Below are positions 1 through 11,980 of a DNA stretch of 25,865 nt, piece after piece (within the stretch, counting starts at the first letter, position 1; the number at the start of each line of letters is the position of its first letter). Where the stretch lies: positions 1 through 25,865 of the IMG/VR virus record IMGVR_UViG_2582580933_000011. The stretch is one strand, 5' to 3'. The translations under genes were made by a program, and so were the position numbers. The notes beneath the pieces were generated by a model, which saw only the letters and a program-made list of their open reading frames with translations, made no database searches and had not been told where the DNA came from. This stretch comes from a virus. Lineage: Duplodnaviria; Heunggongvirae; Uroviricota; Caudoviricetes.

Positions 1-131
1 GAAGACAGTGACCTCCGTCTGGCCGGTTCGGATTCGTACCTCGCAGAGGTCTTTCCTCGTTACCAGTGCCGTCACAATGACGGTTAAACAGATGACGATC
101 AGAGCGATTAACATCGCTTTTTGCTGCTTCA
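1..131 (-). CDS. hok: Hok/Gef-family type I toxin (small membrane toxin); 3' end cut by window start
   Basis: Minus-strand ORF with ATG at 129-131 preceded by GGAG. Manual translation MKQQKAMLIALIVICLTVIVTALVTRKDLCEVRIRTGQTEVTVF... fits the Hok/Gef pattern (single TM helix, conserved RKxLCE and TGQTEV motifs). A mok-like overlapping frame starts at ATG 188-190 in a different frame, as in hok/mok/sok loci. Confidence 0.75.
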
Positions 132-313
132 TAGCCTGCTTCTCCTTGACCTTTTGGTCGGTAAGAGGCTAATCTACGTATGCTAAGCATAGATATGGCC
201 TCAGATTAATGTTAAGCGTCTTGCAGGACGCGTAATGTTATCTGGGGCTTTCTTCTATCTGCTTTTCTGGTAATGCCTGAAGCAGATAGCCTCAAGCACC
301 CGCAACGATTGTA
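132..313. promoter_or_regulatory. hok mRNA leader region; expected location of mok start and a sok-type antisense RNA/promoter
   Basis: Inferred from the canonical architecture of hok/sok loci (antisense RNA overlapping the mok/hok leader). No specific promoter was mapped from sequence. Confidence 0.3.
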
Positions 314-3493: not shown

Positions 3494-3711
3494 AAACCCC
3501 CCTGAACGTCGGCAGAGAAGGGGAGGCTCCAGTAACTAAGTGAATTGCGCGAGTTAGTTGAAAAACGGGCAGTAAAAATGCAGGGGCCGTCAGGCAATTG
3601 AGAGCGTGCTTCGTCTTCTGTTGCTGCGATAACGAAGTGATAGTGGTGTTTTTTACAGGAATAGAAACGCCAGATGAATTCTTGGCGTGCGCAAGGATTG
3701 GCATTAACCAT
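3490..3711 (-). CDS. icd: Icd-like small protein (73 aa), translationally coupled to ant
   Basis: 73-codon ORF whose stop overlaps the ant1 start. GAGG 9 nt upstream of the ATG at 3709-3711, and that SD lies inside a sequence complementary to an upstream element (see c4-like feature). Identification is by position and length relative to P1 immI; the sequence itself was not independently recognised. Confidence 0.5.
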   Translation of the reverse strand: MVNANPCARQEFIWRFYSCKKHHYHFVIAATEDEARSQLPDGPCIFTARFSTNSRNSLSYWSLPFSADVQGGL

Positions 3712-3764
3712 AGTTACGGCCTCACAATCAGGTTTAACAACCTGCTACCCGCTGTCAAACAGGT

Positions 3765-3860
3765 GGCAGGACGTGACAGGGTTGACAGACTGGCGATTGT
3801 GAAACCAGCAGGCCGAAGCCTCCCCATCACGCCCCACCATAATTTGGGCGTAACGCGGTT
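3765..3860 (-). ncRNA. candidate c4-like antisense repressor RNA (approximate bounds)
   Basis: The central element 3781-3802 (plus gttgacagactggcgattgtga) is the inverted complement of motifs at 3722-3760 (CACAATCA ... CTGTCAAAC, overlapping the icd SD) and 3907-3929 (CACAATCA ... CTGTCAAAC). This is the a1/b1 - a'/b' - a2/b2 layout described for P1/P7 c4. Ends of the RNA cannot be fixed from sequence alone. Confidence 0.4.
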
Positions 3861-4042: not shown

Positions 4043-4138
4043 GTTTGTTTAATAAATGCACAATTGGATCTAATAACCTCTTTTTTTTAAAGGCGAAAAT
4101 ATGTACCCTAAATGAGTTATAAGGCAGGTGAGGTTATA

Positions 4139-4630
4139 ATGAGAAAACTATTACTACCGTTATTATTTATGGCTGGGACTGTTAATGCAGCATCAAGCGT
4201 AAAGGAGATTTGTACCGATTATACGAAATACCTTGGGCACGTTTACGGATTTGCTGTCAGTGAAGACGAATCCATGCGCAAGAAGTTACTGTCAGATATG
4301 AAGCGCCTTAAACTTTCTGAAGCGATGGTGCAGCAGGAACTGTATAAAGTCTCAACCAACGCAAATGCTAAATACCAATATTCTCGCCTATTAAACCCCG
4401 ATGCAAATGAGATCAATCGAAGCACTTTCGATTATATGGTAAAGGCATGCGAAACCGCTCCTGATTTTGCTATCCCTAGCTGGGGTGTGCTGGTGGCGAG
4501 CAATGCCGTTAATAAAGAAGATGTTGGAAGAAATGGCATTGACTCAATCAGAAATGCCCCAGGAATGCGCCATCAAAACGTGCAGGGTACGCTTGAAGAA
4601 CGAGCCAGGGGGCCGGGTGTAGCTCCATAA
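4139..4630 (+). CDS. secreted (signal-peptide) protein with a C-terminal motif shared with the Sit protein
   Basis: ORF track 4112..4630. The likely start at ATG 4139 has GGTGAGG upstream and gives MRKLLLPLLFMAGTVNA|ASS, a signal peptide with an AxA-type cleavage site and no lipobox Cys. C-terminus NGIDSIRNAPGMRHQNVQGTLEERARGPG matches Sit segments. The body of the gene is AT-rich, the 3' end GC-richer. Confidence 0.6.
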   Translation: MRKLLLPLLFMAGTVNAASSVKEICTDYTKYLGHVYGFAVSEDESMRKKLLSDMKRLKLSEAMVQQELYKVSTNANAKYQYSRLLNPDANEINRSTFDYMVKACETAPDFAIPSWGVLVASNAVNKEDVGRNGIDSIRNAPGMRHQNVQGTLEERARGPGVAP

Positions 4631-4718: not shown

Positions 4719-5225
4719 ATGAAATTATATAAGTCATTGTATAGCTTTTTATTAATGTCCTCTTTTCTGCCATTATCAGCAATGGCAGGTTCTACCGTTT
4801 GGACGGTAGGAGGTGAGCAAGGGTGGAGAGAAATCTCTGCAACCAATGACGATGGTTATACAATTAACTTTTCTTGTGATGCTGGAGCAAGGGAAGGTTC
4901 AGAAGATCATATCGCTGGAAGAAATTTGTATGTAAGCGGAGGAAAAGAGAATGCCGATTTTTCTACACGCGACACAATATCACGTAAAGCAGATGTAATT
5001 ACTTTAATTGTTGGCCCGGATAGTTTTAATATTGGCACGCAAAACACTGCTCCTAATCGTAGGGAATGGTATTCATTTTGGAAGGCAGTGTCATCTACAA
5101 ATGAAAAAAACATAGATGTATATATCGGTTCGAGTCGAATCACATCATTCACTCTGGATGGTATTTCCAGTATTTATACAGAAGCTAAAAATGACGGGTG
5201 TTTAAAACAAGATGACGGTGAATAA
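4719..5225 (+). CDS. secreted/periplasmic protein, unknown function
   Basis: 168 aa. N-terminal signal peptide MKLYKSLYSFLLMSSFLPLSAMA|GST, two Cys in the mature part. AT-rich. Its end overlaps the start of the next gene by 14 nt. Confidence 0.6.
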   Translation: MKLYKSLYSFLLMSSFLPLSAMAGSTVWTVGGEQGWREISATNDDGYTINFSCDAGAREGSEDHIAGRNLYVSGGKENADFSTRDTISRKADVITLIVGPDSFNIGTQNTAPNRREWYSFWKAVSSTNEKNIDVYIGSSRITSFTLDGISSIYTEAKNDGCLKQDDGE

Positions 5226-6285
5226 AGTGAAGGATATTAAACACATTTCGCTTAACTCTAATAATAAAGCTGAAGGCACTGTCTTTTATGATTATTTAAA
5301 TGAAATTAAAGGAGTGAGGCATAAAAAGATAAGTGGTTTATTAAATTCAGAATATATTTACAAGAGTTTAGTTAAACAGTTTGGAACAGTTAAAAAACAA
5401 GAATTAATTAATGATTGTTTTCGAAAAGAACTTGAGTCTTTACCAAAAGTTACGAGAATTGCACACCAGTTTCGTGAACAAATGGTATTTTTACAGAAAC
5501 AGTATCAGGCGGCTTTTCCCAGTGATGCAAATGAGCATATTCAAATAATTAAAAATCAAGCTGAAATGGCTATGCCGTTACGAAAACACTCAGAAGCCAT
5601 TAATAAGATAGCTGGCTTAAATAATATGGAGGAGGTATTTAAAGAATTACACTCTAATATAAATTACAAAATTAAGATAAGCAAAGATATTAAAGAAATA
5701 ATAAAGCAGTATAATAAAACAAGAAGTGTATTATTAGAGCAAGTAGTAGAGCTTGGGCTTGTTACTATCGCGCAGGCTTATGCTAATGATTCTATAAAAT
5801 CAGCGCATACCGAAAGTGAGCATCAAAACAAAGGATTTAATAAATCTAGTTCGACGTTTTTTGATTCATTTAAGGCGCTTCCTTCTCCTATTCAGATCTT
5901 CCTTCTGTGGATTTTTTATCAAGTGGTGCTTGGCGCTATAACTGATTATGCAAAAGAAAAGACATTATCGCAAATTTACAAGATGGAATCATATCTTCTA
6001 TCTCTAAATGAGGATAAGCCAATATCTAAGCAAAAGCTAACACAAGAAAATAAAGATATTCAGTGGGAGGATCTTAATAATTTTAGAGCTATAACAGGTG
6101 ATAACGTAAGGTTGCATGTCGGCCCTTCTTTAAATAGTGAAGTGATTGAATGCATTGGCAAAAACACAATTGTTGCTATTTTAGATAAGAAAGATCGTCA
6201 ATGGCTTTACGTGCAGGTTAAATCAGGGGATGAGTTTATTACTGGTTGGATTACACGAACATACACAAAGCCTCTTAAGGCTTGA
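5212..6285 (+). CDS. Lys/Asn-rich protein with one predicted TM segment and a C-terminal SH3b-like domain
   Basis: 357 aa. Hydrophobic segment PIQIFLLWIFYQVVLGAIT. C-terminal approx 60 aa (VRLHVGPSLNSEVIECIGKNTIVAILDKKDRQWLYVQVKSGDEFITGWITRTY) has the bacterial SH3 pattern. Very AT-rich, strong compositional contrast with neighbours. Confidence 0.55.
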   Translation: MTVNKVKDIKHISLNSNNKAEGTVFYDYLNEIKGVRHKKISGLLNSEYIYKSLVKQFGTVKKQELINDCFRKELESLPKVTRIAHQFREQMVFLQKQYQAAFPSDANEHIQIIKNQAEMAMPLRKHSEAINKIAGLNNMEEVFKELHSNINYKIKISKDIKEIIKQYNKTRSVLLEQVVELGLVTIAQAYANDSIKSAHTESEHQNKGFNKSSSTFFDSFKALPSPIQIFLLWIFYQVVLGAITDYAKEKTLSQIYKMESYLLSLNEDKPISKQKLTQENKDIQWEDLNNFRAITGDNVRLHVGPSLNSEVIECIGKNTIVAILDKKDRQWLYVQVKSGDEFITGWITRTYTKPLKA

Positions 6286-8605: not shown

Positions 8606-11600
8606 ATGGAAAGAAAAAACGCCAACATTGACGATGTTATAAGGACAGTTGAAACCGCCAGCGCAAAAGAGCTGGAAGAGCTTGCAGGTATCCGGGAAGC
8701 TGTTGAAGATTTGAAAGGGGGACGCGTTGCAACTGTTGATCCTGTCTCTCACAGTGTGTCGGCATTAAATCGCACAATCGAAAATTCCAGGCCAGACTTT
8801 GTGGCCAATGCGCCATCAGTGGCCCCTATTGTTGAGGCAATGAAACGGCTTAATTTAGGGGACGTTTCTCGTGTAGTTCAGGAGGATGTTGCTCTACAGG
8901 AACCGCAGGCCAAATCAACTACGCGAAAGGGTAAAAAACGACGCAAGAAGGCTATAACAGAAGATGTAAAGGCGCAACGGACCGAAGCAGCCGAACACGC
9001 TCGCGAAATGTTCGGTCAAAAAGGCGGTGCGCAAAAAAGCCAAAACCAACGCGATGCGCGTGGTCGTTTTATTGGAAAGCCAGGGAGTAAGGCCGCAGCG
9101 GAAGATGCCCGTGCTGAACGTGCTGAAAAGGCCAGGCGCAAAGAGGATGATGAGCGTCTAAATGCTGAATCAGGTTTATTAAAAAAACTGTCAAAAGTAG
9201 CTGAAGGCATAGGTAACCCTTCAGAGACTCGCGCCGTCGATGCGTTAGGTTATGCCGTTGCTGGTCCATTGTGGGCCGCAGGGAAGGAGCTTGGCGGGAT
9301 ATCAAAAGAAGTTGGTGGATCGCTTAATGGTGCCAGAAAGTCTATTGCCGATGTGATTCGTGGCAATGACGATAACAGCCGTAGAAAAGGTTTTTTTAGG
9401 CGTAAATCGCAAAATAGTGCCGATGTCGTTCAGGTTAACACCCAAAAACGGACGGTTCAGGAACTTCAGGATCAGACCAGCGAAATTAAAGAGGGCAATG
9501 ACAAGATTCTCAGCGCCCTTGATCAGATAGCCAAAAACACCGGGAAAAAGAAGGGCGGCTTGCTGTCCAAATTATTTAGCCTGTTAGGGAAGGGGGCCGG
9601 TGGCGTCGCGTCGTTGTTTATGGGGCGTGGCATGCTGAAAAAAGCTGGAGCACTCGCTTTTGGCGCTCTGGGGGCAAAGAAACTTGTAGGAATGCTACGC
9701 GGTGGTGGCAAGAAGACTCTCGCCCATGAAGGCGGAGATTTGGCTGCCCGGGCAGCAGGTAAACTTGGATTAAAGGCAGTTGGTAAAGGGGCGTTACGCG
9801 CAATTCCCCTAGTCGGCACAGTGGCTGGAGGTATTTATGATGCGGTAACCGGTTGGAATGATACAGAAGCGCAACGTCGAGCGTTTGGGCTTAAATCAGG
9901 ACAAGATCCATCATTCCAGCAAAAAGCCGCTTATACGTTAGCCAATGTTCTTGATTTGGGGGGACTGGTATCTGGTATTAGCAGTGCTATTGGTGATGTT
10001 CTCAAATCACTTGGATTTGAGGATATCGGCAATATGTTGCAATCATTTTCGACGGAAAGTATTGCCCAGGCCATTGATAGTGGGATTACCAACTTAGAAA
10101 CATATATTTCTAACCTTGGCGACACCATTTCTACCAAGTTCGATGATTACACAGCAAAGATTGGTGATGCTGTTTCAGCATGGTTTAGCGATACATCTAA
10201 TAAGCTGCTTGAAAAGCTGGATGCCATCAAAGACTTCTTTACTGTCGATAACCTGAAACAGGTTTTCAGTGATGCAATTGATAGTGCAATTGATTTCATT
10301 AAGAACCCAGGGAAACACATTAAAGAGGCAGCTAGTAATATTTGGGATGGGGTTAAAAATTTACCAGGTAAAGCATTAGATGCAGCGGTTGATGCCGTTA
10401 AAAATACCCCTGCGGCAATGATTGTATCAAAAACACCCAATCCGATCGGCGAGGCTAATGCGAAAGAAATCACTCCAGAGTTAAAAGCTCCGGTTAATAG
10501 CCAGCAGGGGACATCTGATTCTAAAGCTGAATCCGATGCCAAACAGACTAATATTGCTGCCCGCGTGATAAATGCGGCCCTGGATATGGCGAAAGATAGC
10601 AATAAAACAGTTAAAGAAACTGCTAATCAGATTATCAATGCAAATGCCGTAGAAACAGGAAATAAAGCAGCACAAACAATTGATGCTGCCTTGGGCCAGT
10701 CTGCTACAGGTAAGGAGGAAGCATTAAGTGCATATGAGATAGATAAACGTCGATTTAACAATGGCAAGGATGTTTCTTTGCCAAAATTAAATGCTGCCGG
10801 ATACCAATGGATTTCTGACAATGCCGATTATTTTGATGAGCTTGAACGTAAGTATGGGCTTGAAAAAGGGATTCTGTCAGCAGTTGCATCCGCAGAGTCT
10901 AGTGCAGGCCAGAGAACTGGAAATCCAGTAGACAAAAACGGGAACAAACTTTCATCTGCCCTTGGGGCTTTTCAGATCACTAAAGGTACAAGGGAGGATC
11001 TTGGACTCAGCGATGCTGATGCCATGGATACACGAAAAGCAGCTGATGGTGCCGCCAGATACCTAAGTATGCTGATGAACCGTTATAACGGTGATCAGGG
11101 TCGTGCAATAGCTGCCTATCATGCTGGTATGGGGCATGTTGATAAGGGGAGAGTAGTCGCCGGTACCGGCGAATATGTTACTCGTGTCAGAGGTTATCAG
11201 CAGATGCTCAATAATGGTGCCGTTTATGGCTCTAAGGTAGATCATAGCGCACCAGCAATTCACGAAAAGATACCTGATAACGCTGTTATCGATCAGTCTA
11301 CTGGCCTGGCGTTTACCCCTGGTGATAGCCCGTTTGAGAAAGGCGGTCTGGTAGACAAAATTGGCAATGCTGTTGGTGTTAACGATCTGGTCAACAAATT
11401 CATGAATGGCCGGGGTATGCGTCGGGAAGTCGTTCAGGGAACGCTCGAAGAACGTGCACGAGGGAAGGGGACCGCAACAGCAGCTGGCAATGTGTATGTT
11501 GATACTCCGATGCCAGTTGAAGAGGCGCGTCCGGTGGCCAGCAATTCAAGTTACTTTGACCAACTCGGCGCACAAATGGGGATTGATGGACTATTCGATA

Positions 11601-11980
11601 AACTCCGCAACTCGCCGGGGATGCGGAAAAATAATGCGCCTGAACCAGCCTCCACGTCCCAGGTGACGACTGCCGCCAACGATTTGCAGCAACCAACCGG
11701 TCGTATGCAGATAGACGGACAGGTTATTAGTGACCTTGGCGGCTCCGGTGCCAAGCCGACAATGCAGTTGGCTGATAATACCGTTTCACTTGATGGTGAA
11801 ACGAAGCGGCTGTTTGCGCAGATGACCTCATTGCTTGCCAGGATTGAAGAGCACACTAAAGACTCGGCGAAAGGCCAGGGAACTGTCGTAAAGGTCAGCA
11901 CGCCTCAACCGGGCGTTATGCGCACGGTGCCACTGTCAATTGATGATCCGTTGATGAATGACTACGCGAGAGTTGATTGA
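8606..11980 (+). CDS. sit: Sit-like tape-measure / structural injection protein with internal soluble lytic transglycosylase (SLT) domain
   Basis: 1124 aa. Gly/Ala/Lys-rich N-terminal half. SLT signature at approx nt 10860-11140 (LSAVASAESSAGQ ... GAFQITKG ... AAYHAGMGHV). Position upstream of the baseplate and fibre genes. Size close to P1 Sit as recalled. Confidence 0.85.
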   Translation: MERKNANIDDVIRTVETASAKELEELAGIREAVEDLKGGRVATVDPVSHSVSALNRTIENSRPDFVANAPSVAPIVEAMKRLNLGDVSRVVQEDVALQEPQAKSTTRKGKKRRKKAITEDVKAQRTEAAEHAREMFGQKGGAQKSQNQRDARGRFIGKPGSKAAAEDARAERAEKARRKEDDERLNAESGLLKKLSKVAEGIGNPSETRAVDALGYAVAGPLWAAGKELGGISKEVGGSLNGARKSIADVIRGNDDNSRRKGFFRRKSQNSADVVQVNTQKRTVQELQDQTSEIKEGNDKILSALDQIAKNTGKKKGGLLSKLFSLLGKGAGGVASLFMGRGMLKKAGALAFGALGAKKLVGMLRGGGKKTLAHEGGDLAARAAGKLGLKAVGKGALRAIPLVGTVAGGIYDAVTGWNDTEAQRRAFGLKSGQDPSFQQKAAYTLANVLDLGGLVSGISSAIGDVLKSLGFEDIGNMLQSFSTESIAQAIDSGITNLETYISNLGDTISTKFDDYTAKIGDAVSAWFSDTSNKLLEKLDAIKDFFTVDNLKQVFSDAIDSAIDFIKNPGKHIKEAASNIWDGVKNLPGKALDAAVDAVKNTPAAMIVSKTPNPIGEANAKEITPELKAPVNSQQGTSDSKAESDAKQTNIAARVINAALDMAKDSNKTVKETANQIINANAVETGNKAAQTIDAALGQSATGKEEALSAYEIDKRRFNNGKDVSLPKLNAAGYQWISDNADYFDELERKYGLEKGILSAVASAESSAGQRTGNPVDKNGNKLSSALGAFQITKGTREDLGLSDADAMDTRKAADGAARYLSMLMNRYNGDQGRAIAAYHAGMGHVDKGRVVAGTGEYVTRVRGYQQMLNNGAVYGSKVDHSAPAIHEKIPDNAVIDQSTGLAFTPGDSPFEKGGLVDKIGNAVGVNDLVNKFMNGRGMRREVVQGTLEERARGKGTATAAGNVYVDTPMPVEEARPVASNSSYFDQLGAQMGIDGLFDKLRNSPGMRKNNAPEPASTSQVTTAANDLQQPTGRMQIDGQVISDLGGSGAKPTMQLADNTVSLDGETKRLFAQMTSLLARIEEHTKDSAKGQGTVVKVSTPQPGVMRTVPLSIDDPLMNDYARVD

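Follow-up and report, generated by a model that had tools for sequence, protein, structure and literature searches.

SimA, a putatively secreted sim-locus protein of a P1-like phage-plasmid, shares a conserved tail module with the tape-measure protein Sit

Introduction

In long-tailed phages, the C-terminal part of the tape-measure protein (TMP) lies at the baseplate end of the tail and is the first part out. T4 Spackle is a periplasmic inhibitor of the tail lysozyme gp5, and the translocation epitopes of colicins, the TolB box and the TonB box, are short linear motifs within a disordered segment that bind periplasmic partners during import. The early exit of the TMP C-terminal part has been illustrated for T4, and T4 Imm binds the T4 TMP (bioRxiv 10.64898/2026.03.06.709160). 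According to a reference listed in PMC3952083, Ltp of phage TP-J34 targets a TMP. The inner-membrane protein gp15 of HK97 causes superinfection exclusion while leaving the phage receptors unblocked (PMC3594210).

The superimmunity (sim) region of phage P1 is a known variable region. In the P1 annotation, a predicted PsimA promoter adjoins the Oc4 operator, and the Sim phenotype, superimmunity, is ascribed to simC. The P1 protein Sit is called a TMP in PMC12810830, with which the P1 annotation agrees, and it was invisible in the P1 cryo-EM structure (2026; PMC12810830). Here, we analyze a 25,865-nucleotide stretch of the virus record IMGVR_UViG_2582580933_000011 (the window), in which the first gene of the sim locus encodes a protein whose C-terminal tail resembles a segment of Sit from the same genome.

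Results

A full-length SimA at the sim locus

The window belongs to a P1-like phage-plasmid (Punavirus). Between positions 3500 and 9000, it is 97% identical to P1, P7, and relatives, the sim (superimmunity) block excepted, and this stretch includes the 5' end of sit and its flanks, which are 97% identical to P1 with the same gene order. On the minus strand, the genes run kilA, ant, icd, and C4 RNA, and the plus strand follows with the three ORFs of the sim cassette (Table 1) and then pmgC, tub, pmgB, and sit. The first of these ORFs thus has the position expected of a SimA-family gene, between the c4-icd-ant (immI) region and pmgC-tub-pmgB-sit, in a layout that is syntenic with P1 and with 7 diverged loci. 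A strong match to the sok antitoxin RNA (127-301, minus strand; Rfam RF01794, 109.8 bits) places a hok/sok-type toxin-antitoxin locus at the left end, beside the kilA/repL-side genes.

Table 1 Positions of the features described in the text (window coordinates).
Feature	Position	Strand	Basis or remark
C4 antisense RNA, immI region	3759..3844	-	Rfam RF01695, 68.4 bits; simA is divergently transcribed from C4
simA, full-length allele, 163 aa	4139..4630	+	phrog_3933, E 1.9e-113, residues 1-162
Sec-type signal peptide MRKLLLPLLFMAGTVNA	4139..4189	+	read from sequence; predicted cleavage after VNA (MRKLLLPLLFMAGTVNA/ASS)
Helical-bundle domain of SimA, aa ~20-125	4196..4513	+	invariant cysteines C25 and C104; AlphaFold2 pLDDT 92-97
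Sit-like module in the predicted disordered C-terminal tail of SimA, aa 122-162	4502..4624	+	BLASTP, phrog_2533, hhalign
Recombination breakpoint	4618..4619	+	right after ...ERARGPG; DNA alignment with phage vB_EcoM-Ro157c2YLVW
Second predicted secreted protein of the cassette, diverged YfjT-like	4719..5225	+	phrog_3429, E 1.6e-71
Third cassette gene, 357 aa, hydrophobic segment and C-terminal SH3_3	5212..6285	+	phrog_7086; in the place of simB/simC
sit, tape-measure / injection transglycosylase, 1124 aa	8606..11980	+	phrog_2533; between pmgB and baseplate genes
Sit module, full copy GGLVDKIGNAVGVNDLVNKFMNGRGMRREVVQGTLEERARGKGTATAAGNVYV, aa 913-965	11342..11500	+	aligned with SimA tails; many invariant columns in Sit relatives
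Sit half-copy GIDGLFDKLRNSPGMRKNN	11579..11635	+	within a ~43-aa insertion, E. coli P1-type Sit only

The simA gene of the window and that of the P1 simABC operon share the locus, the promoter-proximal sequence, and an identical stretch of the first 45 residues (N-terminus 88-92% identical over 51-57 aa by tblastn). P1 SimA, a stub of 52 aa, has neither the helical domain nor the tail, whereas the window protein is intact. Judged by sequence, the window gene encodes the intact form of the SimA family, of which P1 retains only the stub. The family comprises 29 clusters from a search of 5.8 billion proteins; the source records label three of these clusters 'simA domain protein', and all members whose contig was examined lie in P1-like elements (E. 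coli, Salmonella, Klebsiella, Cronobacter, and metagenomes). As the start codon, we prefer position 4139 because a GGTGAGG Shine-Dalgarno sequence lies 5-6 nt upstream and the homologs begin at this MKK/MRK codon; we consider the ATG at 4112, chosen in the P1 annotation, less likely.

Owing to its Sec-type signal peptide, which contains no lipobox when read from the sequence, SimA is probably periplasmic, and the signal peptide together with the invariant cysteine pair fits a periplasmic protein. N16, A17, and S19 are invariant across the SimA family. In an AlphaFold2 model run with the family alignment, the signal-peptide region has low pLDDT, and the helical domain, for which we found no known fold relative, is followed by a tail (residues 130-163) at pLDDT 43-61, predicted to be disordered and exposed beside a domain at pLDDT >90. 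An assignment of residues 34-118 to a PTP-like phytase (PF14566) reached 25.2 bits against a cut-off of 27, was without structural support, and is regarded as spurious.

Cassette exchange in the sim locus

In place of P1 simB and simC, the window carries a YfjT-like gene and a gene for a predicted membrane protein with an SH3 domain; simB and simC have no match in the window outside the masked sim locus (tblastn best E 2.2), and the locus holds a different cassette. YfjT is an E. coli prophage protein. The YfjT-like product is 29% identical (E 7e-25) to the product of the partner gene that accompanies a 215-aa SimA in phage vB_EcoM-Ro157c2YLVW, and partner genes at related loci carry the domain PF27224 YfjT. 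SimA and its YfjT-like partner may act as a pair. The third product has a hydrophobic segment near aa 220-245, and its SH3_3 domain was called at Pfam E 3e-6 (27.7 bits against a cut-off of 27); related loci encode 394-aa or 325-aa versions of this protein.

In a survey of 68 IMG/VR loci, the E. coli-type elements carry one of three cassettes. Cassette I, that of P1, consists of the SimA stub, simB, and simC; cassette II of the 215-aa SimA and a YfjT-like gene; and cassette III, as in the window, of the 163-aa SimA, a diverged YfjT-like gene, and the membrane protein with the SH3 domain. Throughout this survey, the SH3 gene is found only alongside the 163-aa SimA. The 163-aa form recurs widely, in a cluster of 153 members and at numerous IMG/VR loci, and so constitutes a stable allele whose C-terminal end is the module itself. 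Each full-length SimA examined is followed by the gene of a secreted YfjT-like protein, with one small ORF in between at two loci (L008 and L009).

Up to ...ERARGPG, the window gene is ~97% identical to the 215-aa allele of vB_EcoM-Ro157c2YLVW, and beyond this point the window continues in unrelated low-GC DNA. The window protein ends with VAP and a stop codon, while the 215-aa allele has a helical extension to ...LNLPYEW. The alignment indicates that the recent event in the window allele is a cassette swap just past the module, by which the C-terminal extension was lost. At locus L008, a SimA with the ...LNLPYEW extension is closely followed by a 23-residue remnant (10708-10776) that matches the Cys-helix tail module of other SimA proteins at 78% identity and resembles a scar of tail-module swapping.

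The SimA tail is homologous to a segment of Sit

The SimA product ends in ...NGIDSIRNAPGMRHQNVQGTLEERARGPGVAP, with NAPGMR encoded at 4553-4570 and VQGTLEERARG at 4580-4612, and its counterpart in Sit reads ...NKFMNGRGMRREVVQGTLEERARGKG..., with GMR at 11414 and VQGTLEERARG at 11432-11464. BLASTP with compositional adjustment aligns SimA 122-162 with Sit 921-957 at E 8e-8 (21/41 identical), and a second Sit segment, which corresponds to the half-copy GIDGLFDKLRNSPGMRKNN, aligns with the same tail at E 0.006. At the profile level, the Sit-family profile phrog_2533 matches SimA 127-162 at E 1.6e-5, and a profile-profile comparison of the two families by hhalign gives a probability of 94.3% and E 1e-7 over 31 columns. 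The longest peptide common to both proteins has 11 residues, compared with at most 7 in 2000 shuffles of Sit. In the DNA of this 11-codon run, 26/33 nucleotides are identical, and 7/7 differences are synonymous. With family members included, the alignment grows to ~50 residues, and the tails of diverged SimA lineages share with the Sit orthologs a ~50-column consensus, [KE]D.GK ... F.N..GMR.Q.V.G.L.ERA.G.GT.T.MGN.SP.

Because the BLASTP, profile, hhalign, and shuffle results agree and the DNA differences are synonymous only, we conclude that the sequences of the tail and of Sit are truly homologous and have been maintained at the protein level. The initial annotation had described a secreted protein whose C-terminus matches two segments of the TMP Sit, with conservation at the protein rather than the DNA level. 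The signal peptide agrees with secretion and a probably periplasmic location, the identity of Sit accords with both the P1 annotation and PMC12810830, all coordinates of the match proved exact, and the match is significant, lies at the protein level, is not of low complexity, and is more extensive than the annotation had described.

The Sit module is a conservation island next to the SLT domain

In Sit, the module lies just C-terminal to the peptidoglycan-cleaving SLT domain (aa 742-847, nt 10829-11146, E 1.7e-14). Column conservation among Sit proteins averages 0.82 at residues 931-960, compared with 0.51 before and 0.19 after, so that the module stands out as a conservation island, and it is constant although the adjacent SLT domain exists as two diverged alleles. 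In an AlphaFold2 model of Sit 700-1124, the SLT domain alone is confident, and the module (pLDDT ~30-59) lies outside any confidently folded domain. The insertion that holds the half-copy is absent from the aligned C-termini of Salmonella, Klebsiella, and Cronobacter Sit proteins.

The two SLT alleles, compared between Sit of the window (~10700-11150) and the loci L004-L012 and proteins P0040-P0066, read either ...GAFQITKGTREDLG... or ...GMFQFTSIARKETG... with a WKKGTGDL insertion, and they are shuffled among otherwise similar Sit proteins in which the flanking module is unchanged; Sit is thus a mosaic. Further upstream, in a Gly/Ala-rich hydrophobic region (Sit aa ~336-345, window 9600-9640), the sequence ...SLFMGRGMLKK... 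faintly resembles the FMNGRGMR of the module, a likeness that is probably due to chance.

The module is confined to SimA and Sit and predates the window allele

All P1-like Sit orthologs examined contain the module, including a distant one (P0072) whose contig (L088) has no simA locus, and P7 has other genes at the sim position and keeps the Sit module. Retention of the module in the Sit of phages without SimA (P7 and L088) argues that it has a function of its own in Sit. In SimA proteins, the two halves of the module differ in distribution. The N.(P/R)GMR half is present in most of them. The V.G.L..RA.G half is found in the E. coli types, in Salmonella (P0017, P0020, and P0027), in Klebsiella aerogenes (P0019), and in two metagenomic proteins (P0028 and P0073), and many other SimA proteins have Cys-containing helical modules in its place, from which it follows that this half is not essential to SimA activity. 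Both GMR and G.L..RA.G persist in SimA proteins whose N-domains are only 52-66% identical, and the sequence past the module is freely swapped. Together with the synonymous differences in the 11-codon run and the conservation island in Sit, this indicates purifying selection on both the SimA and the Sit copies.

A module profile run with HMMER against 1.84 billion representative proteins returned 9 hits at E <=0.001, all of them SimA-family or Sit-family proteins or fragments, and among 50,697 phage records, the Sit segment occurs in P1-like phages only. A word-indexed homolog search with the motif profile retrieved four short SimA/Sit fragments and no full-length Sit, and is therefore uninformative on exclusivity. 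Across 13 loci, the Cys-helix modules and the ...LNLPYEW extension of SimA proteins have no match to other proteins, and SimB, SimC, ORF B, and ORF C have no match to virion proteins in the window. Two metagenomic relatives of higher GC, a distant SimA (P0073, L086 805-858; ...NAPGMRHQAVKGSMAERARG...) and a distant Sit (P0072, L088 12413-12466; ...NAPGMRHQVATGSMADRAYG...), both read GSMA where the enterobacterial proteins have GTL(A/E), and their module DNA is 76% identical over 54 nt. The shared GSMA may reflect co-variation, with the two contigs coming from different samples so that they cannot be paired.

Apart from the match itself, the initial annotation had suggested a chimeric gene with a captured piece of sit, citing its GC-richer 3' end. 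GC is 0.52 at 4521-4630 compared with 0.43 in the rest of simA, a modest difference that bears out this point only weakly and that a Gly/Arg/Ala/Pro-rich tail is itself expected to produce. Since diverged SimA proteins carry the module and the DNA differences are mostly synonymous, the module is old and ancestral in the SimA family, and this gene is no recent capture. At the DNA level, the SimA and Sit modules are 50-70% identical, with Sit of the same genome not clearly closer than foreign Sit, and the one recent breakpoint we detect lies after the module. The annotation had also proposed looking for the motif in other P1-like genomes and took a motif common in unrelated proteins as evidence against the match; as described above, it recurs in all Sit examined and in several SimA lineages, and among the 1.84 billion representatives, it is limited to SimA/Sit relatives.

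Two forms of joint evolution were considered and set aside. For concerted evolution or gene conversion, the module identities of own and foreign SimA-Sit pairs are not clearly different, and the apparent co-variation between SimA and Sit (GSMA in both P0072 and P0073, and matching AP/SR residues before GMR in some pairs) can be put down to contigs that cannot be paired or to a shortage of character states. At one locus (L057), a diverged SimA module is paired with an E. coli-type Sit.

Discussion

Our analysis suggests mimicry by the SimA tail against incoming sister phages. As a tentative reading, toward which we lean with some reserve, SimA would be a periplasmic competitive mimic of incoming Sit and would thereby cause superinfection exclusion. 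The exported protein would combine a compact helical domain with a flexible tail that copies a ~30-50 residue segment of Sit. During infection, the SLT domain and the module of Sit would be some of the earliest parts to enter the periplasm, because the C-terminal part of a TMP, at the baseplate end, exits first. In a prophage-carrying cell, the SimA tail would then occupy a site needed by the Sit segment of an incoming P1-like phage, candidates being a phage component (the open tube tip or Sit itself) or a host envelope factor, and genome delivery would stall after adsorption, resulting in superinfection exclusion. That SimA reaches the periplasm, that the prophage expresses it, that it confers exclusion, and which target it has are all steps that we infer.

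In favor of competitive mimicry, the homology is significant by three methods, the module is exclusive to the SimA and Sit families, and both copies are under purifying selection; the signal peptide, the predicted disorder and exposure of the tail, the location in the sim locus, and the precedents of TMP-targeting exclusion proteins fit as well. Several observations argue against it. The P1 annotation credits simC with the Sim phenotype, P1 SimA is only a stub, and the window is without simB and simC. The V.G.L..RA.G half is dispensable in many SimA proteins, and there is no clear correspondence between a SimA module and the Sit encoded in the same genome, as seen at L057 and in the similar own and foreign identities. 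The proposal also leaves the conserved N-domain of SimA without a role. The idea of a decoy, raised in the initial annotation, is plausible and agrees with the precedents. Its general form, that a temperate phage might shield its host by self-mimicry, with a secreted tail bearing a linear epitope of its own TMP that competes for an essential periplasmic docking step, we put forward with greater reserve still.

The N-domain would gain a role, as a steric block, if SimA acted as a poisoned subunit, its tail joining a Sit-Sit or module-SLT assembly after ejection and its bulky N-domain capping or misdirecting that assembly. TMPs are multimeric and form a conduit after ejection, as described for T4 (bioRxiv 10.64898/2026.03.06.709160), and the extra half-copy in P1-type Sit would fit a self-interacting repeat. 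Such an activity would still amount to exclusion, with Sit itself as the target and no third party involved, an arrangement that we judge unlikely. In the monomer models, the module is docked neither on the SLT domain nor on the SimA N-domain, but both tails are of low confidence, and the Sit model is uninformative about the module.

Equally improbable, in our assessment, is that the module serves as a shared recognition signal, by which one and the same periplasmic factor (a protease, a chaperone, or peptidoglycan) would handle both proteins, and the motif in SimA would serve localization, processing, or turnover rather than competition. Disorder of the module in both SimA and Sit is usual for linear recognition motifs, and the N.PGMR half, the only one that nearly every SimA retains and one that P1-type Sit has twice, resembles a minimal binding epitope. 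However, a general host-factor signal would be expected in other proteins too, and none of the 1.84 billion representatives outside the two families carries the motif. Moreover, a SimA tail that binds such a factor would still compete with Sit for it, so this explanation shades into competitive mimicry.

A lower probability attaches to an evolutionary relic, in which a secreted protein gained a piece of sit by an old recombination, leaving the tail as a functionless linker or spacer, and SimA would act through its N-domain alone or with the YfjT-like partner. Recombination is frequent in the sim locus, a hot spot where cassettes are exchanged and breakpoints fall on module boundaries, and some SimA proteins have lost the second half of the module, as a relic would allow. 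However, the same residues are invariant in SimA lineages 52-66% identical, the DNA differences from Sit are synonymous only, and the common 163-aa allele, found in a 153-member cluster and at many IMG/VR loci, ends right at the module, all of which is difficult to reconcile with a tail free of function. Finally, a chance or low-complexity resemblance, which a short segment rich in Gly and Arg might invite, is refuted by the compositionally adjusted BLASTP E-value, the phrog_2533 and hhalign profile matches, the 11-residue run not approached in shuffled Sit, and the recurrence of the resemblance in diverged family members.

Irrespective of mechanism, a module limited to Sit and to a predicted secreted protein of the sim locus offers a handle on the delivery of the P1 genome across the periplasm and on the role of the C-terminal third of Sit, as well as a starting point for the molecular basis of P1 exclusion by the sim locus. 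It narrows the question to a 30-50 residue peptide suited to mutagenesis in SimA or Sit, to use as bait, and to modeling against candidate partners. If competitive mimicry is true, a decoy made by self-copy would be a new principle beside the known TMP-targeting exclusion proteins, and it would bear on the host range and spread of P1-like phage-plasmids, which are carriers of resistance genes. If self-mimicry is true, it would be a novel route to superinfection exclusion, and approximately residues 913-965 of Sit would constitute a functional injection epitope in a TMP that was invisible in the P1 cryo-EM structure.

In the papers on simA consulted, among which the 2004 P1 genome paper (PMC523184) does not figure, we found no mention of the SimA-Sit resemblance. 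Among described systems, the proposed role would place SimA beside T4 Imm, TP-J34 Ltp, and HK97 gp15, as a phage-encoded envelope protein with a post-adsorption delivery target. SimA has no sequence or fold similarity to Imm, Ltp, or gp15 and falls in no characterized exclusion-protein family; it is predicted to be a soluble periplasmic protein and neither a membrane protein nor a lipoprotein. With the periplasmic T4 Spackle, SimA would have in common that a small secreted helical protein meets an incoming cell-wall-degrading injection protein in the periplasm. The SimA tail may likewise be compared with the TolB and TonB boxes of colicins, by analogy only and with no sequence resemblance claimed. 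As described in their sources, none of Imm, Ltp, and gp15 carries a copy of a TMP segment, whereas SimA has one.
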